Source: a virus
Lineage: Duplodnaviria; Caudoviricetes
Direction: 5' to 3' (one strand)
Virus record (IMG/VR): IMGVR_UViG_3300010347_002584
Location: 1,443-65,442 of that record
DNA: 64,000 nt
In this document: positions 39,746 through 54,848 of the stretch, one piece after another
How positions within the stretch are numbered: the stretch's first letter is position 1
How the letters are laid out: each line of letters starts with the position of its first letter
Program-made: the position numbers and the translations under genes
Notes under the pieces: generated by a model
What the model saw: the letters and a program-made list of their open reading frames with translations, nothing else
The model's database searches: none
What the model was told of the DNA's origin: nothing

Positions 39746-39759
39746 TTGAAATCCTCCTT

Positions 39760-39990
39760 TTAGTTTGGAGTTGTTTCCTCCATTGAATTTACTATCTGGC
39801 TAAACATTTTTACCAGAGTTGAATCTGATCGTGATGAAAGGAACCGATCGCTCATTCGAAGATATTGGCTATTTAATCTTATAAACTTAATTAAAATTCT
39901 TCTTTGGTGTGATCGTTGTTTTATCATACTCTCTAGTTGATCAGCCTGGTATTTCACAAACTCCATATTATTTAGTATTTTTTCTTTCAT
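39760..39990 (-). CDS. small hypothetical protein between RNAP subunits
   Basis: 76 aa, coupled to the rpoC stop. Confidence 0.55.
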   Translation of the reverse strand: MKEKILNNMEFVKYQADQLESMIKQRSHQRRILIKFIRLNSQYLRMSDRFLSSRSDSTLVKMFSQIVNSMEETTPN

Positions 39991-42686
39991 AATTTCTCAC
40001 CACATAGTATTTTATCCATAATTCCACTATATAAACCTCTATGAACTATACCCTTTAAAATATGTCTCTTTGGATTAGAAAATCCAAGTCCTAATAACCA
40101 ACTTTCTTTGCTTGGAACAGATTGAACACTATGATAATCAGGTACAATTTTATCTCTATTCTCTAATAGTCTCCATTTGGAATTTCCTTTCCACATCATT
40201 TGAGAAACAACACATTCAAAATGAACATGATATATATCTCTATTTGAGTTATATACCCTAAATAATTCAGAAATTAATTCTTTATATTGTTTCTCTTTTT
40301 TCAGATGAAGAAGCTTACTAGCACTATCTAAATCACTTACAATATCTAGTTGCTTCATTTGTTCATCTTTATTCATTTTGGCAACACCAGATGTATGGAA
40401 AGTTCTCAAAATCAACTGAGTGTTACACTCCCCTAGAGATTGTGCAGCAATTACACCAATAAACTTACTATGCATATTTCTAAAAGATTCTCCATAGCAA
40501 GTATGACAGATATCTTCACTCTTACAGAAAATTGGACTTCTCACTTGAATGGTTTTTCCTACAAAAGCTTCACAATTTTCTGGATCAATTAAAACTAGTT
40601 TATTATAGCCTGGAATCTTACAATACTTATTGACTAACATTTTTGCTTTCTTCAAACTATCAACATAAACATCTAAACAATCTGTAGTTCCACAATCATT
40701 TAAAGTTTCATGAAGTTGAAGATTTGCACAAGTAAATATAAGTTTTCTTGATAAATATCCAGATGCTCCAGTATTCAACGAAGCATCCAATAATCCCTTT
40801 CTACAACCGTAAGTGGACAGGAAAAACTCATGCTGGGTCAACCCATCTAGTAAACTATGTTTAATTGGCGTAGCTAAAATCTGTCCCCTAAAATTTGAGA
40901 TAAAACCTCTAGTCATAACTATCTGTCTTACTTGTTCCCAACTACCTCTTGCACCAGAAGTTATAAGATATGAGTAACTAAAATTATTTTTCAAAATATT
41001 TTCTAATTCATTACTAGAAACTTTTTCCAACTGTGAAATAGTATCATCTCCTTCATAAAGAGAATTTCGTATAGATTTTGAATTTTCAATTCTACATGCA
41101 TCCAATGATAAAGTCGTTCCTAATAAAGTTGAATATTTAAATCCTTTCCACTTAATTTCATCTAACACATTTTTTGTAACTTCTTCAGAATACTTATTTT
41201 TTATATCATTTAAGATTGCTATCAATTCTTTCTTTCCAACAACATAATCAATAATAGGATAATCTTCTGGTAATGCTTCATTAAATAATCGTAATCCTTC
41301 AGTAATTTCTTTTCCTTTAAATTCAACTTTATTTTCAAGATTTGAAATTCTATGAGATGTTAAAGCATAAATTCCAAGAACAATATCTTGACTAGGAACT
41401 GTCGTTAAACTTTCATTTGCTGGATTTGAGAGGTTTTTTGTAGATAAGAACTTTTTCTTTACTTCTTCTTTTGCTTCATCAGATACAGGAATATATACTG
41501 CCATCTGATCTCCATCAAAATCTGCATTAAATCCAGAGCAGACTAATGGATGAATCTTAATAACATTATCCATTGACATCTTAATTTTGAATCCGATCAT
41601 ACTTAATCTGTGTAATGATGGTTGCCGATTAAGAAGACAAAACTCGTTTTCAATGGCTTCTTCTGCAATTCTATAAAGACTTGGAATTTTAAAGTCAATA
41701 CAATTATCTATAAAATCGACAGCATCATTTAGAAGTTTAAACTTTCCAAGCTCAATTAAAATCTTTGATATCTTAAGCTTAAATAGTTCTAAAATCATTA
41801 CATAAGGAAGACAACATTCATCCAGAGAAAGAGTAGGATCTGGAATAATAACAGCTCTTCCAGAAAAGTCAATTCTCTTTCCTAGAATATTTCCTCTAAT
41901 CAATCCTTCTTTTTTAGATAGTTTCTCAATTATGTGTTCATAAAGTTCATTGACATCTTTTTGTATTTGTTTAAAATAGGTATAAAATATTCTCTTATCC
42001 TTCGAGATACTAAAACTTGTATTTCGCATTGCTTCTTTCTTTGTTAGTATTTGTACATAATATCTATTTATCTTATCTATAACCTGATTATTTCTTTCAA
42101 TTCCTTTAGCAGCAGGTCTCAAATCCGGGGGTAGCACTATTACATTATTCAGAAATAATAAATGTAAATTATCCTTGATTATTTTCCAATTGGTATTTCC
42201 ATGTTTAATATTATCATTTGTAAGACCACTAACCAATTCATGAATAGCTTCTAACATTTCCCATCTTTTTGCTTTTTCTGGGACATTTTTATCCTCTACA
42301 CATACATAGTCGTCACCATCCTTGTATAAACTAACATCATCTTTTTTCATTAAAGTATCTATCATACTTTTAACATTGTTTCCACCAATGCTAATAAGTA
42401 AATCATAAAAAATAGGATTTACTACTGGAATTGGAAGAACTATTTTCGCAAATCGTTGTCTTCTAACATTATTATTAACTATATCTACTTTACATGTTTT
42501 ACACTTTCCTCCAGATTTAGAAGATCCATAATAAATTCCACATTGGCATGTGTAGTTTTTCAATGGTCCAAATATCTGTTCAGAAAATAAACCTTCCGGG
42601 TGGAATTTTCTTTTAGTTACTATATTTGGAGATGTTACTTCCTCTAAATTTTCACAAAACTTATTCTGATCTAATAATGTGGGCAT
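39987..42686 (-). CDS. rpoC: multi-subunit RNA polymerase beta' subunit (phage)
   Basis: IFGP..Y.CQCG, GKRIDFSGR, NRQPSLH, catalytic NADFDGDQMAV, SGARG, GYLSRKL, TQLILRTFH. Confidence 0.95.
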   Translation of the reverse strand: MPTLLDQNKFCENLEEVTSPNIVTKRKFHPEGLFSEQIFGPLKNYTCQCGIYYGSSKSGGKCKTCKVDIVNNNVRRQRFAKIVLPIPVVNPIFYDLLISIGGNNVKSMIDTLMKKDDVSLYKDGDDYVCVEDKNVPEKAKRWEMLEAIHELVSGLTNDNIKHGNTNWKIIKDNLHLLFLNNVIVLPPDLRPAAKGIERNNQVIDKINRYYVQILTKKEAMRNTSFSISKDKRIFYTYFKQIQKDVNELYEHIIEKLSKKEGLIRGNILGKRIDFSGRAVIIPDPTLSLDECCLPYVMILELFKLKISKILIELGKFKLLNDAVDFIDNCIDFKIPSLYRIAEEAIENEFCLLNRQPSLHRLSMIGFKIKMSMDNVIKIHPLVCSGFNADFDGDQMAVYIPVSDEAKEEVKKKFLSTKNLSNPANESLTTVPSQDIVLGIYALTSHRISNLENKVEFKGKEITEGLRLFNEALPEDYPIIDYVVGKKELIAILNDIKNKYSEEVTKNVLDEIKWKGFKYSTLLGTTLSLDACRIENSKSIRNSLYEGDDTISQLEKVSSNELENILKNNFSYSYLITSGARGSWEQVRQIVMTRGFISNFRGQILATPIKHSLLDGLTQHEFFLSTYGCRKGLLDASLNTGASGYLSRKLIFTCANLQLHETLNDCGTTDCLDVYVDSLKKAKMLVNKYCKIPGYNKLVLIDPENCEAFVGKTIQVRSPIFCKSEDICHTCYGESFRNMHSKFIGVIAAQSLGECNTQLILRTFHTSGVAKMNKDEQMKQLDIVSDLDSASKLLHLKKEKQYKELISELFRVYNSNRDIYHVHFECVVSQMMWKGNSKWRLLENRDKIVPDYHSVQSVPSKESWLLGLGFSNPKRHILKGIVHRGLYSGIMDKILCGEKL

Positions 42687-42688
42687 GT

Positions 42689-42907
42689 TTAGTCTCCCGA
42701 TGTTTTATCTAAAAGATCAACAGCTATTGTTCTTAGATGCTGTTTTACATTTTTTGCAATCATGACTTCAATGTTTGGCATCACCTCCTTAATTAACTGT
42801 TTTAGTTCTAATTTTGTAATTTCCCTGTTTTCTTTTTTCATTGTTTCCTTTACAAGTTCAACAATTTCTTCTTCTAACTGAGGACCAAGAAGACCTTTCT
42901 TTTTCAT
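42689..42907 (-). CDS. small hypothetical protein
   Basis: 72 aa directly upstream of rpoC. Confidence 0.55.
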   Translation of the reverse strand: MKKKGLLGPQLEEEIVELVKETMKKENREITKLELKQLIKEVMPNIEVMIAKNVKQHLRTIAVDLLDKTSGD

Positions 42908-43177
42908 TTATTTGATCTCCTCTATTTCAATAATAATATCCTTTGGCTTTTCTTCTGATTTCTTTCTTTCAATTGCATTAACGATTTTCTTATGATTAAA
43001 ATCAAAAACAATATGAGTTAGATTTTTAACAGCTTTTTCTATTGGTTCTTTTAAATCAGTTACTAGACCACTTAACGTATCCAAGATCTGATTTCTATGA
43101 ATATTAGACATTAAAAACCTCCTATCAAAATTTTTTATCATAGGAGAAAGCAAACCAAGCAGAAAAATAACAATCAT
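42908..43177 (-). CDS. small hypothetical protein
   Basis: Likely starts at MSNIHRN behind GGAGG. Confidence 0.5.
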   Translation of the reverse strand: MIVIFLLGLLSPMIKNFDRRFLMSNIHRNQILDTLSGLVTDLKEPIEKAVKNLTHIVFDFNHKKIVNAIERKKSEEKPKDIIIEIEEIK

Positions 43178-43466
43178 TCATATTATATGTAGATAATAAT
43201 TTATCTAAACTCCTAAGAGATTCCTTAGAAATTTTTAAGTTATCTTTGAATGTTTTAGACAAACAAAACTCATTTGTTTCTGGATCACTATTTGGATGCT
43301 TTCCATTAATAACCACTTTTTCAACATTTGACTCATCATCTAAATATATAGAATATCCATTGATTATAAAATCGGTTTTTATCGAAGTAATTTTCCTGAC
43401 TGAGTCCTTATATATTACTCTCGCAGGAACTACAATCTTTTTAAATTTTAGTACTCTTTTTTTCAT
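43125..43466 (-). CDS. putative E2 (UBC-fold) protein
   Basis: HPN-x8-C (HPNSDPETNEFCL) followed by LDKLLSTYNMND, resembling the UBC post-catalytic helix. Directly downstream of a ThiF-like gene. Confidence 0.5.
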   Translation of the reverse strand: MKKRVLKFKKIVVPARVIYKDSVRKITSIKTDFIINGYSIYLDDESNVEKVVINGKHPNSDPETNEFCLSKTFKDNLKISKESLRSLDKLLSTYNMNDCYFSAWFAFSYDKKF

Positions 43467-43474
43467 CTTTATTC

Positions 43475-44359
43475 CTATGCAGAACCATCATCCGGAATTA
43501 ACTCAATGACTGGACCCTGTGGTGTTATCGGTGAAAATGAAACGATATAGTAATTACTTTGGAATCTCAATTGAATTAATGGAATTAAAGTTATCATCAA
43601 GTCATTTACTTCAGATAATCTATTTGGAGGAATAACTTCTTTGACTGTTGGTCTATCCTTTCCACCAACATATACAGTTATGGGTGAGTTTTTATTTGCA
43701 GAAATTATTGGTTGTGAATATTCTACTAAATTCAATAATTTATGATCCCCATTACAATAATCATATATTATATCTGGTATGTTTTCTACTCGATTGAGTT
43801 TATCTTCTACTTTTTTATCTAAATAATCTAACTCAAATTCTTGAACTAGGTTTTTATCAATTAACTTTTGAATATTATTACTATTTATTAAATTTGATAC
43901 AATTGCAGCTGCATATAACAGATGATGTTTATGAATTATAGACGAGTAGGAACCTTCCCTATTCTTTTCATATATAATATTATTTCTACAATCTACAATT
44001 AATTTTCTTGAAGAAATATACGTTCGAATCGAAGGAGTATTTTCGATCTTATCATATCGAAAATCTCTACAGTCAATAATCAAATCAAAAATTTGATGTA
44101 TTTCTGTTGAGTTAAATCTAATTGCTATTCTATCAACAACAATTTTGTTGATATTCTGTTTTATTTTATCATATATAGCATCTATTTTCAATCTTCCAAT
44201 GTCATTTTCATCATATAGACTTTTTCCTACATTATTTATAGTTACCGTATCATAGTCTATTAACGTTAATTTTTTTAAGTTAGTATTTGTATCTACAAGA
44301 GTTCGGGCCAAAAAACTTCCAAATGATCCTAATCCGACTAAACAAATACTACTATACAA
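43475..44359 (-). CDS. ThiF/E1-like adenylation protein (divergent, second copy)
   Basis: ICLVGLGSFGS, LTLIDYDTV...N, K.DA, DLIIDC.D. Lacks NxxRQ and an obvious catalytic Cys. Confidence 0.75.
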   Translation of the reverse strand: MYSSICLVGLGSFGSFLARTLVDTNTNLKKLTLIDYDTVTINNVGKSLYDENDIGRLKIDAIYDKIKQNINKIVVDRIAIRFNSTEIHQIFDLIIDCRDFRYDKIENTPSIRTYISSRKLIVDCRNNIIYEKNREGSYSSIIHKHHLLYAAAIVSNLINSNNIQKLIDKNLVQEFELDYLDKKVEDKLNRVENIPDIIYDYCNGDHKLLNLVEYSQPIISANKNSPITVYVGGKDRPTVKEVIPPNRLSEVNDLMITLIPLIQLRFQSNYYIVSFSPITPQGPVIELIPDDGSA

Positions 44360-44408
44360 TTCACCATCCTCCGCATATTAGTTTGTTCTCACTTACTCAG
44401 AAGGCATC

Positions 44409-44654
44409 TCAAGTTCCCTCCATAATAGAAACTATTTGTTCCATACATGAATTTACAAACTTTATTTCCTCAATAGTCATTCTTCCAGATGCTTTATATG
44501 ATGATGTTCCATCATTTTTTTCAAACCTTCTGGAAAATTGTAGTTTTGGTTTTCCCCCATCATAGGATAATATTGATACTATAAAAAAATTTCCATTTCC
44601 CTGAGGCATTTCAAATACTTTTAGTACTTTATCTCTATCTTGATTATATGCCAT
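44409..44654 (-). CDS. PC4/YdbC-like ssDNA-binding protein
   Basis: VSILSYDGGKPKLQFSRRF..DG...SGRMTIEE pattern. Confidence 0.6.
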   Translation of the reverse strand: MAYNQDRDKVLKVFEMPQGNGNFFIVSILSYDGGKPKLQFSRRFEKNDGTSSYKASGRMTIEEIKFVNSCMEQIVSIMEGT

Positions 44655-44673
44655 ACTATTATCTCCTTGGTAA

Positions 44674-44777
44674 TAGTGGGTGGGTTACAATAGGTTACTC
44701 CTTGAAAACTAGTCGGTGTAAGGGGAAACCCTTTGTGGATCTAGCATCAAGTTCCTCCCTACGTCACCCACCCACTA
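44674..44777. ncRNA. 104-nt rod-like structured intergenic RNA candidate
   Basis: 12-bp perfect outer stem TAGTGGGTGGGT/ACCCACCCACTA with nested helices TAGG/CCTA, CTTGA/TCAAG, CTAG/CTAG and AAGGG-GAAA-CCCTT. Confidence 0.5.
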
Positions 44778-44783
44778 CTTAAT

Positions 44784-45272
44784 CTACCTTACTTTTGGAA
44801 TCTTTTCTGCAATTCTCTTTTCTTTCTCAGTTGGTTCAGGTCTGAACTCTGATTTAAATTTAAATTGCTTGGAAGTTTCTTCAAGGGGATAGAATCTTGG
44901 AACATAAACATTCTTACTTCCTTCAGGAATAAAAAATGTTTCGTTTATTCTGGCAAGTTCATCTTCAGTCATTTCTTTTTTAATTTTAAATAAAACAAAT
45001 GAAGGAAATCTCTGTCTCTCAGCATTTATTTCATCAGAGTTACCTTTCTTCATTACTGCTTTAACAGCTCTACCATGAGCAATATATCTTGCAACTGACT
45101 TCTTATGCATATCGAGAAGAGATCTAACAGCAATTCCTCTTGAGACAATAGACAAGTCACTCTTATCAACAAGAATACATGCTGTATAGATATTTCCAAT
45201 CAAATCATCTGCTTCATAGTAATACTTTGGAAACAGGTTTCCAATGTCAATCTGTTTGCCATCTTCCATCAC
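44784..45272 (-). CDS. phage hypothetical protein
   Basis: SRGIAVRS..D.H.K..AR.IA.GRA pattern seen in phage proteins. Function unknown. Confidence 0.6.
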   Translation of the reverse strand: MMEDGKQIDIGNLFPKYYYEADDLIGNIYTACILVDKSDLSIVSRGIAVRSLLDMHKKSVARYIAHGRAVKAVMKKGNSDEINAERQRFPSFVLFKIKKEMTEDELARINETFFIPEGSKNVYVPRFYPLEETSKQFKFKSEFRPEPTEKEKRIAEKIPKVR

Positions 45273-45297
45273 TTTTCTCCATCGTTGTAGTAATATT

Positions 45298-45329
45298 TTC
45301 CCCAGCTCCCTTTTCAGAGAGCTGGGGAA
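45298..45329. terminator. hairpin downstream of the Ubl gene
   Basis: TTCCCCAGCTC/GAGCTGGGGAA 11-bp inverted repeat. Weak U-tract on minus. Confidence 0.5.
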
Positions 45330-45337
45330 TTCATTTT

Positions 45338-45787
45338 TTAGCCTTTCCGGCCAGCAGGTTTTAGGAACTCAAGGTTATCTCCCTCTTTGAGACAATATGA
45401 ATCTTCCACCTCTTTACCATTAACAACTCCTCTGGACATACGATCAACATTAAGAACCTCCCTGAGGAACTCAGCAACTGCACCAACAGTCTTTCCAACT
45501 ACAGGGAAATTTCCGTATGAAGCACCACAAGATACTAGAATTGTAGTTGTGGTCTTGTTCCCTTCTGAAGAAGAAGGATTTGTAACCTTACTATGCAATA
45601 CAGACCTCATCTCATCAAGGTTCTGACTTCCAGTTTTATTCCCAGAAACAGTATCTTGTCTGTAGTATGATAGGAGGGCATCAACAATGATATCCTTCCT
45701 CTTCTTGCTCATACCAACAATACCAAATCGAGTACAAATGCTACGAAGTTCATCTACAGTTTTCGCTTCAAGTTCTGCTCTAGTCAT
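45338..45787 (-). CDS. ubiquitin-like (beta-grasp, Prok_Ub/ThiS-type) protein with N-terminal HeH/Rho_N-like domain
   Basis: C-terminal ...VNGKEV..SY.LKEGDNLEFLKPAGRKG-stop. N-terminal LEAKTVDELRSIC...GMSKKRKD.IV..LL. Confidence 0.85.
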   Translation of the reverse strand: MTRAELEAKTVDELRSICTRFGIVGMSKKRKDIIVDALLSYYRQDTVSGNKTGSQNLDEMRSVLHSKVTNPSSSEGNKTTTTILVSCGASYGNFPVVGKTVGAVAEFLREVLNVDRMSRGVVNGKEVEDSYCLKEGDNLEFLKPAGRKG

Positions 45788-45797
45788 TTCAATCTCC

Positions 45798-46484
45798 TTA
45801 CTTTTTGTTTTTTGGTTCTCTAGATGTAGAATGTGCTCTCATAGTTTTCATATCAAAATAGATTTCCGAATTTGTGAGGTCCATATTTTGTATATTATAG
45901 AAGGACCAACACATAATTGTTGCAACCCCTAAGTTCGTAAAGAATAATTGGGGTTCAGAGTTTTGTAACTCTTCACAACTCATTTCATTTGGCAATTTGT
46001 CTTCTGGATTTTCGATTTCTGGATGATAATCTGTCAGACTTGGTGTTAGATTTTCACCTCCTTTTCGGACATAGATTTGAACATTTCCATCTGTAAGATC
46101 ATTTCCTCCAGAGATAATAGTAATATCTTTCAGATTTTTAGCATAATCAGAAACAAGTTTCCTTGTTTTATGATTATCTACTGCTAGAAAAACAGTATCT
46201 CCTTCACTAATTATCTTATCTACAGTAGTTTCATCAATAAAATATGGAATATTCCTGAAATTAATATTCTCATATCTCGCTTTTAACTCATTTGTCTTAA
46301 CCACTGCCTTATTACCCAAAGAGAAGAAATCTTGACGTTCAAAATTTTTCTCTTCGTAATAATCACCATCAACTAGTGTAATTGTTGTTTCCTGATCTTT
46401 TTTAAAATTTTTATATCTAGAAATTTTATCAGATAAGATTGAACCAATTCCTCCAAGACCAATAATAACAATTCGTTCCATCAA
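45798..46484 (-). CDS. E1-like activating enzyme (ThiF family)
   Basis: VIIGLGGIGS, LVDGD..EEKNFERQ, AVDN..TR, candidate catalytic Cys in SCEE. Confidence 0.9.
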   Translation of the reverse strand: MMERIVIIGLGGIGSILSDKISRYKNFKKDQETTITLVDGDYYEEKNFERQDFFSLGNKAVVKTNELKARYENINFRNIPYFIDETTVDKIISEGDTVFLAVDNHKTRKLVSDYAKNLKDITIISGGNDLTDGNVQIYVRKGGENLTPSLTDYHPEIENPEDKLPNEMSCEELQNSEPQLFFTNLGVATIMCWSFYNIQNMDLTNSEIYFDMKTMRAHSTSREPKNKK

Positions 46485-46493
46485 ATCCTCCCA

Positions 46494-47639
46494 TCACTCC
46501 CAGTATTTATATAAACCACAGCTATCATAAAGTTCAGTATTTTCTAGTTCAGAATATTTTTTATTTTCACTTCCATCTTTGTAATTATCTGCAACTGGTT
46601 CTAGAGCTTTTGTAACATCATTTTTGGTTAATTTATATTCTCGGAAAATACAATCCTTACATGGATTGTATTCCACATATCTTTTTGAGTCGAAATCCAG
46701 TTCACCTTGTCTATTCTTCTCATTTGTTCCTTCCCACCAATTCTCCCCATGTCCATAGTGATATCTTCCATACGAACGGTTTGGAATTTCACTGATAGAA
46801 CCAATAGTTTCACCACCAGAACGTTCTTCTGTAATCTCAATTAGTTTCTTCTGTTCATTATCCCATACCCATCTTGTATACTTATAACTAAGTGTCTTCT
46901 TCTTTACAAACTGCATCCAATTTCTATCAAACTCTTTATCCTTATCTGAAACACCATTGATAGTATAACCAATATGTGTTTTTAAATCTTTGTTATACTG
47001 TTTTTCTCCGTTTACAATTGTAAATGATGGTTTAAATTGGTTGGGATTATAGTATGAAAATTCTACCAAATCAAGATTTTCAATATAGTCAAGTGGATTA
47101 ACCATAAATCTTGATCCATTTGTAACAATTGAAGCAGAAATATCCATTACATCATGGTTCATTTTTCCAAGAGTAATGTGCAGTCCATCAAAATTCTTTT
47201 CATCGTCACTATCTGTTCCTGAGTGGAAAGCACTCATACTACCGTGACTATGAATAGAACACATAAGAACGTGGTTCTTAAATGTTTTATCTTTAACATA
47301 ATCAAGACTTGCACCACTAACTTCTTGCTTTGGAATATAAGTTTTATATTTTTTTGTTTCTAGATTATAATATAAAAGAGCTACACATTCCGAATAGTAC
47401 TCTTTATATACCTCCTTAAAGAAACTATAAATCTTAGCAAACACAGAACCAGGGATCTTTTCAATATTTAATTTTGCATATGGTTTTAGATCCCCAAGAA
47501 TAGAGATTTTATCCACTTTAGACAAGCTTTCTATTAGTCCAACTTTTTTCTTCAAAAGGATTCCATCCTTTGCAATTAAATAGCAGATATCATCCTTTGG
47601 AAGCTCTTCACCTTCGTTATATACATATACATTAAACAT
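46494..47639 (-). CDS. JAB/MPN+ metallopeptidase (Ubl processing / deconjugase)
   Basis: ECVALL, then HSHGSMSAFHSGTDSDDE (E..HSH..S..D). GLHITLG. Confidence 0.9.
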   Translation of the reverse strand: MFNVYVYNEGEELPKDDICYLIAKDGILLKKKVGLIESLSKVDKISILGDLKPYAKLNIEKIPGSVFAKIYSFFKEVYKEYYSECVALLYYNLETKKYKTYIPKQEVSGASLDYVKDKTFKNHVLMCSIHSHGSMSAFHSGTDSDDEKNFDGLHITLGKMNHDVMDISASIVTNGSRFMVNPLDYIENLDLVEFSYYNPNQFKPSFTIVNGEKQYNKDLKTHIGYTINGVSDKDKEFDRNWMQFVKKKTLSYKYTRWVWDNEQKKLIEITEERSGGETIGSISEIPNRSYGRYHYGHGENWWEGTNEKNRQGELDFDSKRYVEYNPCKDCIFREYKLTKNDVTKALEPVADNYKDGSENKKYSELENTELYDSCGLYKYWE

Positions 47640-47651
47640 TAGTTAATAACC

Positions 47652-50240
47652 TCACTTCTCATATAAAGAAAATTGGGAAATGGATTTAATATATCCCCCA
47701 AGAAGGTTCGGAAATGCACGAACAAATCTTTCTTCTGCTTTTCTTCTTTCAGAATATCTTGGTCTACAAAATCCATATCTTCTTAGTCCATACCTTGAGT
47801 AACTTTCTGGTTTATTGTGAACATTAATAGTATTTCTAATTGTGTACGAATTTTTCTCCATTGGATAAGCAATATTTAAAAAGTATGAGTAATTTTTACT
47901 AGAAAAGTCGGAAGGAGTATTTTTATAGAAATAAATAACATCTGTCTTTTGCTGATTATCTCTAATAATATAGAAATCGCCAAGTTGGTCTTTTAATTCA
48001 GTTGGATCAACCGCTGGAGATAATTTATTCAAAAGACGGTTATACATTCTGTGTCTTTTTGGATAAATTTCAAATTGATCCATCTCATCTGCCCAAAGTG
48101 TAAGACCATTTGAGCAAAGAACTAAAGGTGGATGTGAAATTGTATCTGTAATTAGACCAACAATCTTATTTACATCTTTTTTCAAGAAGTATGGAATTCT
48201 TGGAGTCTTTGCTACAATTATATTTCCATTCTCAAGATTTTTAACGTTAAGATTAATTTTTCTTATTGATCCAACATATACCATATTTTGTTTGAAATCT
48301 ATATACTTATCCTTCCTTAAAACTCCAGTTTCAGGATCAATCGTTAAAATAAATAAGTATTGTTCATCATAGACAAAAGAGTGAATCTTTCGTGGAGTTA
48401 CCATATCATATATATTTGTCCAATCTGCTACAACAACATCATCCCCAACATTAAATTCTATATCTGAGTCATATGATGGAATTAATAACTTGTTTCCATC
48501 AGATTTAATAAGATCCTGAATAGCCAGATCTTTATTATATGATGCAGCTTCTCCACTATTGTATTTTCTTTCATCCATAATGACACAATCCTTAACAACA
48601 AAGACATCCTTATTGTTAAGTTGATATAATTTATTTAAAATTCTAAAGGTTCTTGTGGCGGGTTCCTTCAAATCTTCAGTTTTGATTACTGTATACTCTA
48701 GTGCCTCTTCATTCTCATGATATCCTTGACAATAAACTCTCCACCTTCTAGTAGTCTGTCCAGCTGGAATATATTTTTTATTTTCATTAAATGTTAATAT
48801 AATATCTCCCTCTGTGGTCACTTCATGTCCAGTATAAAGGATATGACTAAAATACTTAAACATATCATTTGTATTTCTATAAATAATATATTCTTCATCT
48901 TTCTTGATATCAATTGAGGAATATCTTGGTTTAATTTCACCCATCTTTCTGGCATCAATTTTATCTAAAAGATAGTAATCAGATGGATCACCTTTTAACA
49001 TTACTTCAAAATTTCCATCTCTACCAAGTCTTATTTTCTCAATTGTTTTTATCTTTTTAAATGGATAATTAACAATAATTGAGTCTCCAGCAGATACTTC
49101 AGAACCATCCGCTAACTTAATTTTATCAACGAGAGATTCTTTTATCTTAAATGCACTAGCAGGAATCTTTTGGACATTGACCATTTTAGAACTACCATCA
49201 GTATCTTCTAAGTTAAGATATGAAACATGACCACTAGCCTGATCTAAAATAATATCATTAATATAAAATGTTTTTTCATCTATTGTAATTTGATCCCCAA
49301 TAGAAAGAGGCTTGTTTTTCAAAAAACATGAATCTATAGATCCAATTCTAGATGAAAACATTTGTCCATTAATTATTATAGGCGTTCGGGTTAGTATCTT
49401 TTTTAAATTTGACAGAATTCTGGATGAATCAACGAAAGGCTCACCATAGTGTTGAAAGAATAAATCACATGCTTTTTTCAAATGGTTCTCGTACTTAAGA
49501 TATTTAACATTAAATATAAACATTGGATCAACTGCTGTATGGTATGCCCACGAAACAAAATCCTTAAACTCTGGAACTTGTTCCGCATACTCAGCATAAT
49601 TAGTAATATAATCTGTATTGAACGAGTTTGCCCAAAATGCAGAAATAACTGAGTTTACTCCTTCAGATAATCCATCATAGTCATTTTTTATATCACCCAA
49701 ACAAACTGTTTCGTGACCTCCAATATTTGGAAGATTTGCTTTTAAAAGATAATCATATTCTGAACTTATTGGTGATAACCTATAAAAGACCTTCATTCTC
49801 ATGAATCTATTTAATTGGTTAAACAGTAATACATATATAACATAGGGAAAAGATAATGTAATTTTATATGGTCTGGTTTTTCCAATGAGATCATCTACTT
49901 TCACTACTTTGTCTTTACCTGTAATCTTAAAATTCTCTACACATGAACTAAAATCGAAATCAACATTAACTGTTCTTACAGCAGGAGGGTCTTCAATGAC
50001 AATTAGTTTATATCCATTATCATTTATATCTACATATCTACAATTTCTTGGAAGAACCACACCTTTTACAGAAAATGTAGTCAGGAGTCTCTTATAAAAC
50101 TCTTCAGTTTTTACCAAGTTAGTTCGTTTATATGAAAGATACTCATTCTTAGTATTTACAACCGATGCAACCTTTGTGACATATTCTGGACCAATATATA
50201 TTTCTTGAAAGTTATCATTCACATCTTCGCTGAAGCTCAT
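47652..50240 (-). CDS. prokaryotic E2 family D-like domain fused to a long unknown C-terminal region
   Basis: LSFPYVIY, ANLPNIGGHETVCLG (PN..C), FWANSFNTD. About 600 further residues with SH3/KOW-like GD repeats. Confidence 0.75.
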   Translation of the reverse strand: MSFSEDVNDNFQEIYIGPEYVTKVASVVNTKNEYLSYKRTNLVKTEEFYKRLLTTFSVKGVVLPRNCRYVDINDNGYKLIVIEDPPAVRTVNVDFDFSSCVENFKITGKDKVVKVDDLIGKTRPYKITLSFPYVIYVLLFNQLNRFMRMKVFYRLSPISSEYDYLLKANLPNIGGHETVCLGDIKNDYDGLSEGVNSVISAFWANSFNTDYITNYAEYAEQVPEFKDFVSWAYHTAVDPMFIFNVKYLKYENHLKKACDLFFQHYGEPFVDSSRILSNLKKILTRTPIIINGQMFSSRIGSIDSCFLKNKPLSIGDQITIDEKTFYINDIILDQASGHVSYLNLEDTDGSSKMVNVQKIPASAFKIKESLVDKIKLADGSEVSAGDSIIVNYPFKKIKTIEKIRLGRDGNFEVMLKGDPSDYYLLDKIDARKMGEIKPRYSSIDIKKDEEYIIYRNTNDMFKYFSHILYTGHEVTTEGDIILTFNENKKYIPAGQTTRRWRVYCQGYHENEEALEYTVIKTEDLKEPATRTFRILNKLYQLNNKDVFVVKDCVIMDERKYNSGEAASYNKDLAIQDLIKSDGNKLLIPSYDSDIEFNVGDDVVVADWTNIYDMVTPRKIHSFVYDEQYLFILTIDPETGVLRKDKYIDFKQNMVYVGSIRKINLNVKNLENGNIIVAKTPRIPYFLKKDVNKIVGLITDTISHPPLVLCSNGLTLWADEMDQFEIYPKRHRMYNRLLNKLSPAVDPTELKDQLGDFYIIRDNQQKTDVIYFYKNTPSDFSSKNYSYFLNIAYPMEKNSYTIRNTINVHNKPESYSRYGLRRYGFCRPRYSERRKAEERFVRAFPNLLGGYIKSISQFSLYEK

Positions 50241-50243
50241 TTT

Positions 50244-50627
50244 TTACTCCTTCATTAGATATTTCATTATTCTTGCGTACTCAATAATTATTTTATTTGG
50301 GTCAGTTTCATTTATATCCCAACTTTTTACTCGTTTCATTCTAGTTCTCTCTGTTCCACTATTGGTATATGGACCAGTCCAATAACCAACAAAGAATGAT
50401 CCGGGAGCTTCTCTTTCAAGACAAAGATAACCAATTTCTTCTCGATCTCTACCTTTACATTCAATGGCTAAGAAAATATTTGCACCCTTTGGCATCCTAT
50501 CTGGATACTCAAATTTTCCCTTCTCTTCATCATATATTCGATCTGAAATTATTTTAACAGACTCGTCTATACCAGATATGGGATCACTTTTTAAGTCATT
50601 TATAATACTATCTAGGATTCCCATCAT
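50244..50627 (-). CDS. hypothetical protein
   Basis: Co-directional coupled ORF. Confidence 0.55.
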   Translation of the reverse strand: MMGILDSIINDLKSDPISGIDESVKIISDRIYDEEKGKFEYPDRMPKGANIFLAIECKGRDREEIGYLCLEREAPGSFFVGYWTGPYTNSGTERTRMKRVKSWDINETDPNKIIIEYARIMKYLMKE

Positions 50628-50968
50628 ATTCCTCCAACAAGTGTATGTTTTTCAATCATTTTAGAAACTTCCTCATACATTAAATCTATAAACTTATCCT
50701 TATCTTTAATCCTTCCATTTATAAAGTGGAATGATAAAGAACTGAATAAATCTAAAATAAATCGAACTAATCTTTTATCGTCTAATACTAAATCTCCCTC
50801 AATCATAGATGCTTTATTACCACTAATATCTATCATTGAAAATTTCTCTTTAATACCATTAAATTGTAAATCTTGAATTCTCAATATACAGTTTGGAGCA
50901 TTTAGCCAAACCCTTCCCGATTGTGTATCAATATCTATTGTTCCAATAATATCCTTAGAAATTACCAT
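50624..50968 (-). CDS. hypothetical protein
   Basis: Co-directional ORF behind GGAGG. Confidence 0.55.
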   Translation of the reverse strand: MVISKDIIGTIDIDTQSGRVWLNAPNCILRIQDLQFNGIKEKFSMIDISGNKASMIEGDLVLDDKRLVRFILDLFSSLSFHFINGRIKDKDKFIDLMYEEVSKMIEKHTLVGGI

Positions 50969-50978
50969 ATTTCTCCTC

Positions 50979-51290
50979 CTATTTCAACTTTATTATATAA
51001 GACTTCTTGTTAGAAGGAGTAACAAGGTAATCAACTCTATCAAAAGGAACACTTCTCCAATCTTGTTTCTCTATATCATATACTCTTAAAATATGTTTAT
51101 CATTAATAAGTTTTAGAATCTTTGCCAAATCAACACCCTTTGGATGTTTCTCTTTTGGAATTTTAGAGAAATCTAATGTACAATGCATTAGTCTTACAGT
51201 TCCATCCAATTTTTTGAATTTAATAGAAACAGTCTTCTCTACTTTAATTTTATTTAAAAAATCTATTGCAGAAGTTATTGTTTCTGACAC
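50979..51290 (-). CDS. WYL_2/Sm-like SH3-fold phage protein
   Basis: IKFKKLDGTVR.M.CTL...VYDIEK.DWRS pattern. Confidence 0.65.
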   Translation of the reverse strand: MSETITSAIDFLNKIKVEKTVSIKFKKLDGTVRLMHCTLDFSKIPKEKHPKGVDLAKILKLINDKHILRVYDIEKQDWRSVPFDRVDYLVTPSNKKSYIIKLK

Positions 51291-51291
51291 G

Positions 51292-52335
51292 TCACTTTCT
51301 CCTTTCAGAATGAATCAAATCAGATGTCATTTCAGAGTTTGAAGCTATTATTTGACTCATTCTCATACAAGTCCAGTTACATAGACGACAATAATGTAAC
51401 TTATCTCTTGTAAGCATTGGTTTCAACCTTGGATTCAAAGAGAAATCTTTTTCAAATAAATTACTGAGATTAATTCTTCTTGGTGTATCTACACCTCTAA
51501 TTCTCAAACACAGTCGTATTGTTCCATCTGCATCAATAGATAGGTTATGAATATTCTTTTCAATTTCACAATCCATATTAGATGGAAGATCATTATATAT
51601 CTTTGGAAGTAATACTTCTGCCATATGAACATTTAAGTCAGCATCTATAATTTTTTTCAGTTGTTCTTGAACATATTGTGACTTTTCAACTAAAAGATTT
51701 TTATCTGTAACATTGGAAAAATCATAGTACTTACTTTTTGCAATATCAATAAATGTTATGTCACTATTAATACCCAGTTCAGTAAGTTTTTCAACTAATG
51801 GAAATAGAAATGGTAATGTGTCATTGTCAACTGTAATCTCTGCAACCAAATCTTTTATTATACCAATAAACTCAGTAAGTCTTTTTAATCCAGCAATACT
51901 TTTCTCTACCCTGTCACCTGTAGCTGCTTTATCAAATATAACTGGATCTACAGATGATGTTAATCCTGTGATATAGTTTACTTTTGTTAATAAATTTTCT
52001 ATCATTGGTTGCACATCATTGCTGTTATTAGTAATAATTGTATAGTTAATATCATTTGTATTACAGAAATGAACTATTTCAGGAAGATCTTTTCTTAGTA
52101 ATGGTTCACCTCCATACAATATATGAAATGAACTAGAATTATGTTTTTTAAAACTATCTAATCCCTTGAGAATCATTTCTGTTGACATTTCGTTTTTATG
52201 GTATAAAGAAATTTGTGGATATTCTTCTGGAATATCCCTATAATTCCTTACTATTCTACAATATGAGCATTTCAAATTACATTTTCTAGTTAATAACCAA
52301 CTAACAATATGAACCATATCCTTCGTCATAAACAA
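51292..52335 (-). CDS. radical SAM enzyme
   Basis: CNLKCSYC (CxxxCxxC), YGGEPLL, C-terminal Cys cluster (SPASM/twitch-like). Confidence 0.85.
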   Translation of the reverse strand: MFMTKDMVHIVSWLLTRKCNLKCSYCRIVRNYRDIPEEYPQISLYHKNEMSTEMILKGLDSFKKHNSSSFHILYGGEPLLRKDLPEIVHFCNTNDINYTIITNNSNDVQPMIENLLTKVNYITGLTSSVDPVIFDKAATGDRVEKSIAGLKRLTEFIGIIKDLVAEITVDNDTLPFLFPLVEKLTELGINSDITFIDIAKSKYYDFSNVTDKNLLVEKSQYVQEQLKKIIDADLNVHMAEVLLPKIYNDLPSNMDCEIEKNIHNLSIDADGTIRLCLRIRGVDTPRRINLSNLFEKDFSLNPRLKPMLTRDKLHYCRLCNWTCMRMSQIIASNSEMTSDLIHSERRK

Positions 52336-52340
52336 CTCCG

Positions 52341-52658
52341 TTATTTCATGATCTTTGGTTTTTCGATTCTATTTCCTGTTGGAATAACTAGATTAGATGT
52401 TTGAGCAATATACTGATCTGCCAGTCTCTTATCAGCATCAATTGGAAGAACAATGATAGAATCATATCTAACTGTGATTTCATCTCCTTGCATTGGAAGA
52501 AATGGAAGAAGTAAATAACTAATTCCTTCATGTGTTACCATTTCTTTTACTGCCATTGGTTTGGTTAGTTTAACAAGAGTTCTTCCACTTTCTTCTATTA
52601 CTTCAAAGTAACAGATTAGTTTCTCACCATTTGTCAGAACCAAAAGTTGCGGTGTCAT
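52341..52658 (-). CDS. Sm-like phage protein
   Basis: LVLTNGEKLIC...KPM...LLPF.P......YIAQTSNLVIP pattern common in T4-like phages. Confidence 0.5.
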   Translation of the reverse strand: MTPQLLVLTNGEKLICYFEVIEESGRTLVKLTKPMAVKEMVTHEGISYLLLPFLPMQGDEITVRYDSIIVLPIDADKRLADQYIAQTSNLVIPTGNRIEKPKIMK

Positions 52659-52667
52659 AAATTCTCC

Positions 52668-54848
52668 TTAGAATAATTGTAATACTTCATCACAGTCAAT
52701 AAGATCTATTGCCCTATGACTAATAATATTTGTTGATTTTCCCTTTGTGAGAGATCTTAAAAGGTTTGATACATATGAGATATTCTTATCATCTAATGAG
52801 TCAAATATTTCATCTAGGAGTATTATATTCATTTTCATATCTTGAACAATATTCTGCAGGTCAGATAATGTCAAAATAGTAGCTATATCAATTATTCTTG
52901 TCTGACCTCCAGATAGCTGTTTTCTCATATTTGCTTTTGTAACTGTATCCAGAACCCTAATTGTAATTTTATCTCTTATTTCACCAGATTTATTTTCTCC
53001 TAGAGTATCGAATGATACTATATACCTCCCACCTATTGCCTCCAAGTATTCCATAATTCTCTTATTCATAAATGGAATTGTTTCATCAATTAACATACTT
53101 GGAATTCCACTCATTGAAAAACCACTTTTCCAAAATCTTAAAACATCATATTTATCTTCAATTTCAGAGAGAGAAACTCTACATCTTTCAATACTTTTCT
53201 CTACTTCTTTCTCTTTCTCAATCTGACTGTTTAAGAATGTGTCATCATATTCTTCTACCTCTTTCTTAGCAATAGTTTCTAACGTCGCCTTAATTTTAGC
53301 TTTAACTTCATTAATCATCTCTAAGTACTTCTGCTTTTCAAGTATCTTAATATTTATCTTCTCTATTTTTGGTTGTAACTCAACTAGATCTTTTTTAACT
53401 GAAGATGATTCCTCGTTATAATCGGCTTTTACTTTTTCAATCATTCTCAATTCTATATCTAATAATTGCTTTAACTTATCTTTCAATCTTTCGTTTATAG
53501 AAGAAATCTTTTCCGCTGAAGAAGATTCTACTTTTCGTATTTCATCCACAATTTCTTTCTTAATTGAGTTTATACTTTCTGTAAGCTGTTCCTTTTTTGT
53601 CATAGAGGATCTTATTTCTTCTTTTGCATTTTCAATCTCTGACTTCAAAAGTTCGATATTACGATCTATTTCGGAAATTTTAAACTGTATCTCTTCAACT
53701 GTATGTTTTTGAATACTTTGTTTACATAATGGACATATAGAATCTGTTACACCACTAACGAGAGGTTCTTTTTCAGATTCTAGATTCGATATTCTCTTTG
53801 TATTTACTTTTACCATCAAATCTAGTTTTTCTAATCTCATTTTTATTGCCGTAACTTCATCCTCAAGTTTGTTTGTCCTCTCGTATAATTTGTCTTTTAA
53901 TGAGTCAATCAGTTTATTTGCCTCTTGCGTTTCTTTTGACCTAGCTTCTGTAGCAGAAGAAATTAATTCTGCTTCCTTAGCCCTTTTCCTATCTCTTATT
54001 GAAAGAATCTCAGCTTCCAATTTATTCTGAGCATTTTGAAAGATATTTCTTAATTCCATTTCCTTAGACAAAAGTTTTTCTTTTTCAGTTTCTAATTCAT
54101 TTCCAAATTTAAGATATCTTTCATTATACTGTTTTAGAGTATCTTCAAAATCAGAGATATTTTTATTTAAAGTATTTAGTTCTTCTTTTTTTCTTGTATA
54201 AAAATTTATTCTATCTATCTTTATATGTTCAATCTGTTTTTTAATTTCTGCCAGTAAACCTTCATTGATGTTTTTTTGGTTCGTCAAGCTCGTTACATCT
54301 TCTTCAAGACCTTTTAGTCTCTTATTTGTCTCTTCATAATACAATTGGTAGTCATCCAATTGCAATACTCTTCTAAATATTTCTTTCTGCTCAGAATCTG
54401 GAAGGTCTGTAAAAAAAGTTTTTACCTTCTGACCGAACAGTATTGTATTTGAAAACAATTTTTGTGGGAGTAAAATTCGTTCAATTTCTGCTACTACTTC
54501 ATTATGACCTTTTTTTATTTTTTTTCCATTTAGGGACAAAATAACTGTATTTCCAATTTTTGTATACTTACAGTACCTTTCACATTTATAATGATCATCA
54601 TCAATATAAAATTCAACATATGTATAACAATCTTTTCCAACAACATTATTAACTACATCATCCCCCTTTAAATTTTTTGGTGTTATTCCATAAAATGTGT
54701 ATGGAATAGAATCAAAAATTGTAGTTTTTCCAGAACCATTTGGTCCAGTAATCATTACAATTTTATCATTCTTGAACTCAAACTCCATTAGATCCGTGTA
54801 ACAGCAGAAATTCTGCATACCTACTTTTTTAAATTCTACAGATCTCAA
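52668..54848 (-). CDS. sbcC: SbcC/Rad50-like ATPase (T4 gp46-like)
   Basis: GPNGSGKT, coiled coil with CPLC hook, LSGGQ, LLDE.FDSLD. Confidence 0.93.
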   Translation of the reverse strand: MRSVEFKKVGMQNFCCYTDLMEFEFKNDKIVMITGPNGSGKTTIFDSIPYTFYGITPKNLKGDDVVNNVVGKDCYTYVEFYIDDDHYKCERYCKYTKIGNTVILSLNGKKIKKGHNEVVAEIERILLPQKLFSNTILFGQKVKTFFTDLPDSEQKEIFRRVLQLDDYQLYYEETNKRLKGLEEDVTSLTNQKNINEGLLAEIKKQIEHIKIDRINFYTRKKEELNTLNKNISDFEDTLKQYNERYLKFGNELETEKEKLLSKEMELRNIFQNAQNKLEAEILSIRDRKRAKEAELISSATEARSKETQEANKLIDSLKDKLYERTNKLEDEVTAIKMRLEKLDLMVKVNTKRISNLESEKEPLVSGVTDSICPLCKQSIQKHTVEEIQFKISEIDRNIELLKSEIENAKEEIRSSMTKKEQLTESINSIKKEIVDEIRKVESSSAEKISSINERLKDKLKQLLDIELRMIEKVKADYNEESSSVKKDLVELQPKIEKINIKILEKQKYLEMINEVKAKIKATLETIAKKEVEEYDDTFLNSQIEKEKEVEKSIERCRVSLSEIEDKYDVLRFWKSGFSMSGIPSMLIDETIPFMNKRIMEYLEAIGGRYIVSFDTLGENKSGEIRDKITIRVLDTVTKANMRKQLSGGQTRIIDIATILTLSDLQNIVQDMKMNIILLDEIFDSLDDKNISYVSNLLRSLTKGKSTNIISHRAIDLIDCDEVLQLF

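Follow-up and report, generated by a model that had tools for sequence, protein, structure and literature searches.

The locus lies in the genome of an uncultured large wastewater phage, represented by the IMG/VR record IMGVR_UViG_3300010347_002584, which is a fragment (~21% complete). Within the window, the stretch of 64,000 nucleotides analysed here (positions 1,443 to 65,442 of that record), four genes encode an 862-aa E2-like protein, a 381-aa JAB/JAMM metallopeptidase, a single-domain ThiF-type E1 of 228 aa (E1a) and a ubiquitin-like protein (Ubl) of 149 aa (Table 1). The preliminary description had reported these as a phage-borne conjugation cassette of four co-directional, tightly linked genes, and this observation is confirmed: the open reading frames lie where it had placed them and every motif quoted for the four proteins is present, although the gaps between the genes are 12, 9 and 10 nt and not 10-12 nt. 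Judged by profile scores, conservation and dN/dS, these motifs are more than chance resemblances. The four assignments stand, but the four genes do not form a unit by themselves. The p127 gene ends 3 nt ahead of the gene for the 862-aa protein, the genes for p127, p114, a WYL_2 protein and a radical SAM/SPASM protein are separated by 1-10 nt gaps or overlap, and the tight packing reaches upstream to SbcC. Genes for a second ThiF-like protein (E1b) and a small HPN..C protein (p113) follow 1 kb downstream. A GC-rich hairpin lies 11 nt past the Ubl stop codon with no U-tract after it; it was not detected by the consensus terminator scan and may be where the close packing of the genes ends.

Table 1. 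Coordinates of the cassette genes, their neighbours and the downstream hairpin in the window
Feature	Coordinates	Strand	Remark
Radical SAM/SPASM protein gene	51292-52335	-	always syntenic with the cassette, upstream
WYL_2 protein gene	50979-51290	-	always syntenic with the cassette, upstream
p114 gene	50624-50968	-	always syntenic with the cassette, upstream
p127 gene	50244-50627	-	always syntenic with the cassette, upstream
E2-like 862-aa protein gene	47652..50240	-	open reading frame
JAB/JAMM 381-aa protein gene	46494..47639	-	open reading frame
E1a ThiF 228-aa protein gene	45798..46484	-	open reading frame
Ubl 149-aa protein gene	45338..45787	-	open reading frame
GC-rich hairpin, 9 bp	45300..45327	-	arms 45327-45319 and 45308-45300; read from the sequence
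E1b, second ThiF-like protein, 294 aa	43475..44359	-	syntenic with the cassette in ~70 loci
p113, 113-aa candidate mini-E2	43125..43466	-	invariant H57-P58-N59...C68, UBC-type HPN..C signature

The carrier is a phage and not a plasmid or ICE, as the contig, an IMG/VR virus record, has genes for terminase, for baseplate proteins and for the beta/beta' subunits of an RNA polymerase of its own. The phage occurs widely in wastewater and sludge, and RNA libraries of three studies yielded contigs 99-100% identical over the cassette, for which DNA carry-over is possible; stretches of the region lacking contig cover in the RNA runs are uninformative. No match was obtained by blastn of the cassette region against 50,697 phage records, by tblastn of the 862-aa protein or by Rfam over 42000-53000, and promoter and terminator scans of the region gave nothing above chance.

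The 862-aa protein carries a UBC/E2-like domain of the Prok-E2_D type at ~60-250, preceded by additional N-terminal beta strands (residues 1-60). Its E2 motifs LPNIGGHETVCLG (aa 170-182) and FWANSFN (202-208) include LPNI at 170-173, where L replaces the H before PN in the window's protein, and Cys180; N172, C180, W203 and N208 are invariant among the orthologues. Prok-E2_D (PF14460) aligned to ~159-219 with 13.7 bits (E 0.0014), below the 25-bit cut-off, and matched 7/17 homologues (best E 1.2e-4), so that by its sequence the protein is best described as a distant relative of Prok-E2_D lying under the Pfam cut-off. A PDB sequence search with the protein, alone or as a profile, gave no match. 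The AF2 model of the domain (pLDDT 86.3) returned spurious large beta proteins only in Foldseek against PDB and VIA-align was needed to show the fold: about 30 of its top 35 matches to residues 61-250 were UBC/UEV folds (Z 4.1-5.2). The domain thereby combines a UBC/E2 fold with a conserved, putatively catalytic Cys after the PN motif, at moderate scores (Z ~5), and 2751 representatives of it were found at E<=1e-3. The C-terminal ~600 aa evolve fast, had no fold assigned and are presumed to be the substrate-binding, E3-like part. Internal repeats sought in this part were discarded, as they amounted to weak 14-17-column 'GD-x-I/V' matches (E 0.001-0.004).

In the 381-aa protein the JAB/JAMM metallopeptidase domain spans ~20-176; the C-terminal region beyond it is variable but keeps a conserved CxxC (C327, C330). 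The motif HSHGSMSAFHSGTD lies at residues 130-143, and the JAMM active site E...HxH...S...D is complete, with E84, H130, H132, S140 and D143 100% conserved in 70 orthologues. Prok-JAB scored 24.5 bits (E 2.7e-5) against a cut-off of 25; the best named match was PRTRC_A (TIGR03735; 46.6 bits, E 2.9e-12), which did not reach its cut-off of 101.8, so that the protein is a homologue of that family but no member under the curated threshold. Its presumed tasks are trimming of the Ubl precursor and removal of conjugates.

E1a matched ThiF (PF00899) with 69.2 bits (E 3.8e-19, cut-off 28.1) and carries the motifs GLGGIG (9-14), NFERQ (47-51) and SCEE (169-172). Its residues G9xGGxG14, D39, R50, Q51, D103 and C170, the last being a loop Cys, are 98-100% conserved, and the protein therefore joins the profile match to the nucleotide-binding and Arg-finger residues of a ThiF/E1 enzyme. 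PRTRC_ThiF (TIGR03736) aligned over nearly its full length with 37.8 bits (E 1.3e-9) and did not reach the cut-off of 144.75. A total of 1348 homologues were found for E1a, which is presumably an adenylating enzyme capable of thioester formation. As it has no separate catalytic-Cys or ubiquitin-fold domain, direct transfer from the adenylate, bypassing an E1 thioester, is possible.

The Ubl consists of an N-terminal HeH domain (Rho_N/SAP/LEM-like) at 1-47, a linker and a beta-grasp domain at ~89-148. The beta-grasp is borne out by fold matches to MoaD (Z 5.8), ThiS, TGS and ubiquitin, and the orthologues matched the profiles TGS (20/30), ThiS (17/30) and Rho_N (22/30). The C-terminus reads PAGRKG (...LEFLKPAGRKG) with a terminal Gly. 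The exact ...AG(R/K)KG end occurs in 45 of the 66 orthologues, 15 carry one added Cys and a few have <=7 extra residues. The tag, a beta-grasp with an exposed or capped C-terminal Gly, has the make-up of a Ubl modifier; since it ends either at Gly or with 1-7 extra residues, trimming is implied, and the pattern is that expected from sequence for an activated, sometimes processed C-terminus. A Dun1 FHA-type stretch, the best PDB match of the Ubl profile (E 0.008), was rejected because it reflects a shared 'NG..v..Y.L..GD' strand pattern and the fold searches give a beta-grasp. Likewise, a candidate second Ubl upstream of the gene for the large E2-like protein in 5 loci was dismissed, having the HeH domain alone in common.

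Together with the evidence from profiles, folds and conservation, these features support the four protein identities originally proposed. Apart from these, the two downstream genes encode E1- and E2-like proteins. E1b retains GxGxxG, D35, K58 and a DCRD motif, lacks the NxxRQ arginine and ends in an invariant ...(E/D)TG(A/G)A; PADLOC E1-E2 models match it at 1e-11, and it may be either another E1 or a partner of E1a that lacks activity. The conserved ...IELIPETGAA end had raised an E1-Ubl fusion as a candidate, which found no support: hhalign of the Ubl against E1b gave no match, and the ESM Atlas model of residues 195-294 resembled T2SS-ATPase N-domains (TM ~0.5, low confidence) and not a beta-grasp. 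The p113 gene starts 8 nt past the end of E1b. The top 3 PDB matches of the p113 profile were all UBC E2 enzymes with the active site aligned, at non-significant values (E 0.14-0.76), and the protein aligned weakly to the large E2 domain over matching motifs. Pfam and ESM Atlas gave nothing usable for p113, whose dN/dS is 0.06. Most likely, E1b and p113 are accessory parts of the cassette machinery, the former as an E1 partner without activity, the latter as an additional E2.

Comparison with related phages showed that the gene order is kept in ~70 IMG/VR jumbo-phage loci as a fixed array of rSAM/SPASM, WYL_2, p127, the large E2-like protein, JAB, E1, Ubl, two small genes, the second ThiF and the mini HPN..C E2-like protein. 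Catalytic residues are invariant or nearly so over these ~70 diverged orthologues, and dN/dS against a close relative is 0.09-0.22 across the four cassette genes. E1a and the Ubl (median identities across loci 55.5% and 50.5%) come close to RNAP beta' (59%) in conservation, and the gene order is fixed among loci in which the large protein is only 25-31% identical. From conservation alone we infer that the cassette is a conserved core module of the jumbo-phage lineage and not an accessory island, and this status suggests that it acts in the infection cycle of the phage itself.

This bears on the counter-defence role suggested in the preliminary description. Possible forms of such a role are stripping of host Bil or type II CBASS conjugates by the JAB, use of the Ubl as a decoy, or tagging that disables host defence proteins. 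Anti-defence genes are usually patchy, and such a role fits less well with a strongly conserved module whose position is fixed in essentially all members of the lineage, with RNAP-like conservation of E1 and Ubl, than with a variable island. Moreover, conjugate stripping would need just a peptidase, and PADLOC defence models gave no match to the JAB and weak E1-E2 matches to E1a. The substrate-side 862-aa protein does evolve fastest (27% median identity, dN/dS 0.22), as in an arms race, JAB lengths spread widely (297-627 aa) among the loci, and bacterial E1/E2/JAB/Ubl systems are anti-phage (PMC11601596), which leaves counter-defence as an unlikely explanation that still has some evidence behind it.

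Among known systems, the nearest named relatives are the PRTRC systems (TIGR03734-03742) of plasmids and ICEs, for which we know of no established function. The 'PRTRC-type' match is a real likeness, though a distant one, with every score under the curated cut-off. The four enzyme types are likewise separate proteins, PRTRC_A aligns to the phage JAB over profile positions 29-187 of 192 and PRTRC_ThiF to E1a over 13-239 of 245, and the phage E2 domain matches Prok-E2_D. In contrast to PRTRC, the cassette is carried by a lytic-type jumbo phage with no ParB found, its E2 is fused to ~600 extra residues, its Ubl bears an HeH domain, and a second ThiF and a mini-E2 accompany it; PRTRC_B (TIGR03737) was found neither when the 862-aa protein was run through hmmscan nor when the contig was searched in six frames (E<=1). 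Bil (BilABCD, types I/II; operon class 6d of Iyer et al. 2006) shares Ubl, E2, JAB and E1 as separate genes and a Ubl with exposed or capped C-terminal Gly. It performs true protein conjugation with an E1 of IAD-AAD-CYS architecture (PMC11601596), which was not found here, since E1a consists of one ThiF domain (228 aa); an inactive E1 domain might come in trans from E1b. Besides, Bil is a host defence that tags a phage tail protein, whereas the genes described here belong to a phage and to the core of its lineage. Type II CBASS Cap2/Cap3 shares the E1, E2 and JAB chemistry, and the structures that the E2 domain matched in fold include Cap2 (7to3_A) and CdnG-E2 (8hsb_B) (Z 4.1-4.5), but here E1 and E2 are unfused, a dedicated beta-grasp tag is present and no CD-NTase was found.

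Shorter versions of the cassette occur in the cultured Salmonella phage Arash (gp246c-248c) and Bacillus phage vB_BauM_KLEB27-3 (gp194-196), in which E2-D-like, PRTRC_A-like JAB and ThiF genes are adjacent. Bacillus phage Edson has JAB and ThiF genes near each other, ThiF alone was matched in Bacillus phage vB_BceM_WH1 and JAB alone in Vibrio phages D69, D148 and D181. By hhalign, the E2 profile matched KLEB27-3 gp196 (3.8e-5) and Arash gp248c (5.9e-5), which, unlike the 862-aa protein, are stand-alone proteins of ~250 aa. Matches to E1b or p113, and a Ubl by profile, were not found in the cultured-phage cassettes; a 66-aa Arash ORF ending in ...TGTKG was rejected as a Ubl, since the tail alone is alike and the profile comparison was negative. 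The products of these cassettes are annotated as hypothetical or 'structural'.

Mass spectrometry of purified Arash particles detected Gp246-249 and Gp251, numbers that correspond to the homologous cassette region, though numbering in the paper and GenBank may be offset (PMC10585845). Ubl+JAB pairs are also described in phage tail assembly clusters (PMC1779556), and both observations favour a virion role, with Ubl and JAB acting like TAPI/TAPK of lambda-type tail assembly, or with the enzymes packaged and injected to act early. The Arash preparation, however, held many non-structural enzymes too, and carry-over is possible according to its authors (PMC10585845). In addition, E1 and E2 are part of the cassette and absent from tail-assembly clusters. 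The neighbours of the cassette are genes of replication and transcription, and the tail and head genes lie well away from it, at 1-21 kb of the window. We regard a virion role as highly improbable.

As ThiS, MoaD and TGS are the closest likenesses of the Ubl, we also considered that its thiocarboxylate gives sulfur for nucleic-acid or cofactor modification, or that its C-terminus is joined to a non-protein acceptor. The always syntenic rSAM/SPASM neighbour might participate in such chemistry, QueD and further base-modification genes are present in the phage genome, and Urm1 and TtuB are examples of dual-function Ubls. Yet an E2-like protein with invariant Cys and a JAB are always there, the KG end and DNA-binding domain of the tag are unlike known sulfur carriers, and the cultured-phage versions are without the rSAM neighbour. 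The reported absence of ParB, CD-NTase and sulfur-carrier genes was upheld for the contig, in which no ParB (ParB_N profile), CD-NTase (SMODS profile), MoaE, ThiG or rhodanese was found; ParB, CD-NTase and MoaE were also not found in five large relatives, among which is a complete genome of 277 kb. We regard sulfur-carrier or non-protein chemistry as very unlikely.

The reading we favour, and consider probable, is that the phage runs a functional E1-E2-Ubl conjugation system of its own, complete with a JAB, which serves a core function of the lineage in the infection cycle of the phage. Besides the evidence from domains, conservation and gene order, the contigs from RNA libraries and the Arash products seen by mass spectrometry count in its favour. 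In orthologues with 1-7 extra C-terminal residues, trimming by the JAB would expose the terminal Gly, with which the window's Ubl already ends. E1a would bind ATP and adenylate this Gly, and Cys170, in the loop that follows the Rossmann domain, would then carry the Ubl in thioester linkage before it is handed to Cys180 of the E2-like domain. The substrate would be chosen by the C-terminal ~600 aa, E2 and E3 roles thus being united in one polypeptide, and the Ubl would be attached to a substrate lysine, from which the JAB could remove it again. As the HeH/SAP-type domain of the Ubl is of a nucleic-acid-binding kind, the tagged substrate might gain a DNA/RNA-binding handle, or tagging might occur on the phage nucleoid. 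A bolder proposal, to which we give a small chance, is a two-branched system on which the jumbo-phage lineage depends, with E1-type and E2-type proteins, two of each, beside a single JAB and a single tag. It would covalently attach the HeH/SAP DNA-binding tag to phage or host chromosome proteins, as a prokaryotic-virus counterpart of chromatin ubiquitylation or SUMOylation that would serve to organise, protect or switch the replicating phage genome; in such a system E1b, with its invariant ...ETGAA end, might provide another activated C-terminus.

To our knowledge, bacterial Ubl conjugation has so far been characterised as anti-phage host defence (CBASS, Bil, Bub), and we found no paper on an E1/E2/JAB/Ubl cassette as a conserved phage core module. 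Ubiquitin is manipulated by many eukaryotic viruses; if a phage-owned conjugation system is borne out, bacterial viruses would run protein-tagging machinery of their own, and the unexplained PRTRC family would gain a functional handle. The family is large and, with related cassettes in cultured Salmonella and Bacillus phages, experimentally tractable.

The stretch takes in 64 kb of an IMG/VR virus record that is 65.4 kb long and ~21% complete by CheckV; its GC content is ~30%. Among its products are a large terminase, baseplate and tail-fibre proteins, SbcC, topoisomerase II and the beta and beta' subunits of RNA polymerase (RNAP), both unsplit. This gene content marks it as part of a jumbo-phage genome and neither a plasmid nor an ICE, so that the cassette lies on phage DNA as had been described. 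The region 45338-50240 comprises four minus-strand ORFs of 862, 381, 228 and 149 aa, which the preliminary description had read as tightly linked, co-directional genes for a ubiquitin-like conjugation cassette (E2-D, JAB, E1 and Ubl). Linkage, direction and every motif it named were confirmed, the spacers being 12, 9 and 10 nt rather than 10-12 bp, and its interpretation is supported. The close packing extends back to SbcC, with 3 nt between the stop codon of p127 (a 127-aa neighbour) and the start of the largest gene. At the other end, the hairpin past the Ubl gene may serve the phage's own RNA polymerase as a terminator or a processing signal.

Features of the cassette and its surroundings (window coordinates)
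Feature	Position	Strand	Remarks
RNAP beta' and beta	36725-42686		unsplit, 899 and 1006 aa; in every relative next to the module on its downstream side; intein in the beta' gene of one relative
p113	43125-43466		mini-E2 candidate; invariant HPN...C
E1b	43475-44359		second ThiF-like protein; GxGxxG, D35, K58 and DCRD motif kept
p81	44409-44654		81 aa; between Ubl and E1b in 19 of ~74 loci; purifying selection, dN/dS 0.09
p162	44784-45272		162 aa; between Ubl and E1b in 28 of ~74 loci; purifying selection, dN/dS 0.13
Hairpin	45300-45327		GC-rich, perfect 9 bp; 11 nt past the Ubl stop codon; without U-tract
Ubl	45338-45787	minus	149 aa; N-terminal HeH domain and C-terminal beta-grasp (model)
E1a	45798-46484	minus	ThiF family, 69.2 bits, E 3.8e-19
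JAB	46494-47639	minus	PRTRC_A E 2.9e-12; Prok-JAB 24.5 bits (cut-off 25)
E2-like protein	47652-50240	minus	862 aa; E2-like domain by profile, predicted fold and conserved Cys
p127	50244-50627		family C-terminus ...YAKQYKFLRGE, RGE or KGE in 44/60 orthologues; the window's copy terminates KYLMKE
rSAM	51292-52335		always precedes the cassette; PapB-type rSAM/SPASM peptide maturases align along its entire length (E 3.7e-15, well under the cut-off)

The assignment of the 228-aa protein (E1a) as a ThiF-type E1 rests on its family match and on the conservation (98-100% in 67 orthologues) of the GxGGxG loop, D39, R50-Q51, D103 and Cys170. PRTRC_ThiF aligns to almost all of the protein (E 1.3e-9), under its cut-off. 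Cys170 lies directly past the Rossmann domain, the place of the loop cysteine in ThiF and MoeB. The JAB isopeptidase assignment likewise holds, through the PRTRC_A and Prok-JAB matches and through E84, H130, H132, S140 and D143, which are invariant in 70 orthologues.

Sequence searches with the 862-aa protein alone returned nothing in Pfam, PHROG or PDB. In a six-frame search, Prok-E2_D matched residues ~159-219 (E 0.0014, 13.7 bits), and the same family was matched by 7/17 homologues with a best value of 1.2e-4. An AlphaFold2 model of residues 1-290 (37 sequences; pLDDT 86.3, pTM 0.72) gave nothing useful with Foldseek against the PDB; by VIA-align, a search independent of Foldseek, UBC/UEV folds including the bacterial E2s BubB, CdnG-E2 and Cap2 made up ~30 of the top 35 matches (Z 4.1-5.2, residues 61-250). 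N172 and C180 in LPNIGGHETVC are invariant among the orthologues, and their spacing of 8 residues is that of canonical HPN..C E2s. We accept a putative E2-like domain, in line with the E2-D assignment, although every single score is moderate.

In the model of the tag protein (Ubl), the HeH domain is confidently predicted and matches the Rho N-terminal domain (Z 8.0, rmsd 1.3 Å), with SAP, LEM and T4 endonuclease VII C-terminal domains as the next matches. The C-terminal part agrees with the proposed beta-grasp fold, matching MoaD (Z 5.8, 5.1, 5.0) and also Fubi, ThiS, TGS, ubiquitin and ISG15, and among 30 orthologues Rho_N was matched by 22, TGS by 20 and ThiS by 17. Across 66 orthologues the C-terminal sequence is LEFLKPAG(R/K)KG, ending exactly at the glycine in 45, one Cys later in 15 and up to 7 residues later in a few. 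A strictly conserved, sometimes capped terminal glycine is the hallmark of an activated C-terminus whose precursor has to be cut by a peptidase. At the sequence level, nothing argues more strongly than this for joint action of the four genes as a conjugation system.

A second pair of genes travels with the cassette. E1b lacks the arginine of NxxRQ, and its extreme C-terminus, (E/D)TG(A/G)A, preceded by a conserved 'IELIP' strand, is invariant in 31/31 aligned orthologues, and this constancy at a free end points to an activated tail or one used for docking. A fused Ubl in its C-terminal domain was not supported, the hhalign comparison of Ubl with E1b being empty and the modelled domain not beta-grasp-like. 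Heterodimeric eukaryotic E1s contain an inactive subunit, and E1b may play that part for E1a or may be a second E1. The sole PDB matches of the p113 profile were three UBC E2 enzymes, with the active site aligned and non-significant E-values, and p113 aligns weakly to the large E2 domain at the same motifs.

A word-indexed protein search found 18 relatives of the large protein, and IMG/VR has 74 loci with it, the contigs measuring up to 527 kb. With its N-terminal profile, 2751 cluster representatives were retrieved at E<=1e-3, of which 339 reached E<=1e-30; the top matches are mostly 820-900 aa. With ORFs called in all loci and assigned by jackhmmer, the cassette order was preserved in ~70 loci as rSAM/SPASM, WYL_2, [p114], p127, the large E2, JAB, E1a, Ubl, [p162], [p81], E1b and p113, flanked by SbcCD upstream and RNAP beta'/beta downstream, with an identity of the large protein of just 25-31%. 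The module exceeds four genes and appears to be a core rather than an accessory part. Median identities to the window proteins were 55.5% for E1a, 50.5% for Ubl, 42% for JAB, 33% for E1b, 32% for p113 and 27% for the large protein, compared with 59% for RNAP beta' and 38.5% for SbcC, and all module genes had a dN/dS of 0.01-0.22 in comparison with a relative whose contig is 234.6 kb long. The fixed place and the strong constraint argue for a probable role in the phage's own cycle; accessory anti-defence islands differ in both respects, and a counter-defence role of the cassette is unlikely.

PRTRC proteins and Prok-E2_D/Prok-JAB are the nearest named families, as had been proposed. Every curated threshold was missed, and neither PRTRC_B nor ParB_N matched the contig. 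The reported lack of CD-NTase, ParB and sulfur-carrier pathway genes was upheld by profile searches that found no SMODS, ParB_N, MoaE or ThiG in the contig; ParB_N, SMODS and MoaE were also absent from five large relatives, among them one genome of 277 kb that is complete and has terminal repeats. Because of these missed thresholds and absences, the cassette is neither a PRTRC system nor CBASS, nor part of a molybdopterin or thiamine pathway. Sulfur-carrier or other non-protein chemistry, despite the MoaD and ThiS likeness of the tag, seems quite improbable. The Bil E1 has the architecture IAD-AAD-CYS (PMC11601596), which the cassette does not share. Unlike PRTRC, CBASS and Bil, it has an E2 fused to ~600 fast-evolving residues, an HeH domain on the tag, and a co-travelling second ThiF and mini-E2 candidate.

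Among cultured phages, tblastn found JAB and ThiF genes side by side in Salmonella phage Arash and Bacillus phage vB_BauM_KLEB27-3 and a short distance apart in Bacillus phage Edson, but only a ThiF match in vB_BceM_WH1 and only a JAB match in Vibrio phages D69, D148 and D181. Neighbours of ~250 aa align to the E2 profile, PxxN..C and FNxD motifs included (KLEB27-3 gp196, E 3.8e-5; Arash gp248c, E 5.9e-5); E1b, p113 and a profile-detectable Ubl were not found in these phages. Upstream of its E2-like/JAB/ThiF genes, Arash has a 66-aa ORF (L004 8514-8714, minus; frame different from annotated gp251c) ending ...YFSRRTGTKG, a tail that resembles the Ubl C-terminus; profile comparison with Ubl was negative. 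For phages, Iyer et al. 2006 described Ubl with JAB in tail-assembly clusters only (PMC1779556), and the products detected through their peptides in purified Arash particles include those with the numbers Gp246-249 and Gp251 (PMC10585845). As the preparation also contained many enzymes (PMC10585845), these peptides show expression rather than virion location, and an assembly or virion role is the least probable reading. Full-text literature searches found no description of a phage cassette of the E1/E2/JAB/Ubl kind, and two overviews of jumbo phages are silent on it.

Metagenomes of wastewater, activated sludge and digesters from 14 studies contain near-identical DNA, and contigs 99-100% identical over the cassette, one of 762 nt covering the entire Ubl gene, occur in metatranscriptome libraries from three studies, which fits transcription, though DNA carry-over may contribute. 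The cassette is a distinct phage-borne variant, predicted to work like known Ubl systems. E1a would adenylate Ubl and form an E1 thioester, from which the tag would pass to an E2 thioester and an isopeptide bond, while substrate choice would fall to the E2 fusion protein, and both processing of the tag and reversal of conjugation to JAB. We consider it probable that such a canonical cascade serves the phage's own cycle.
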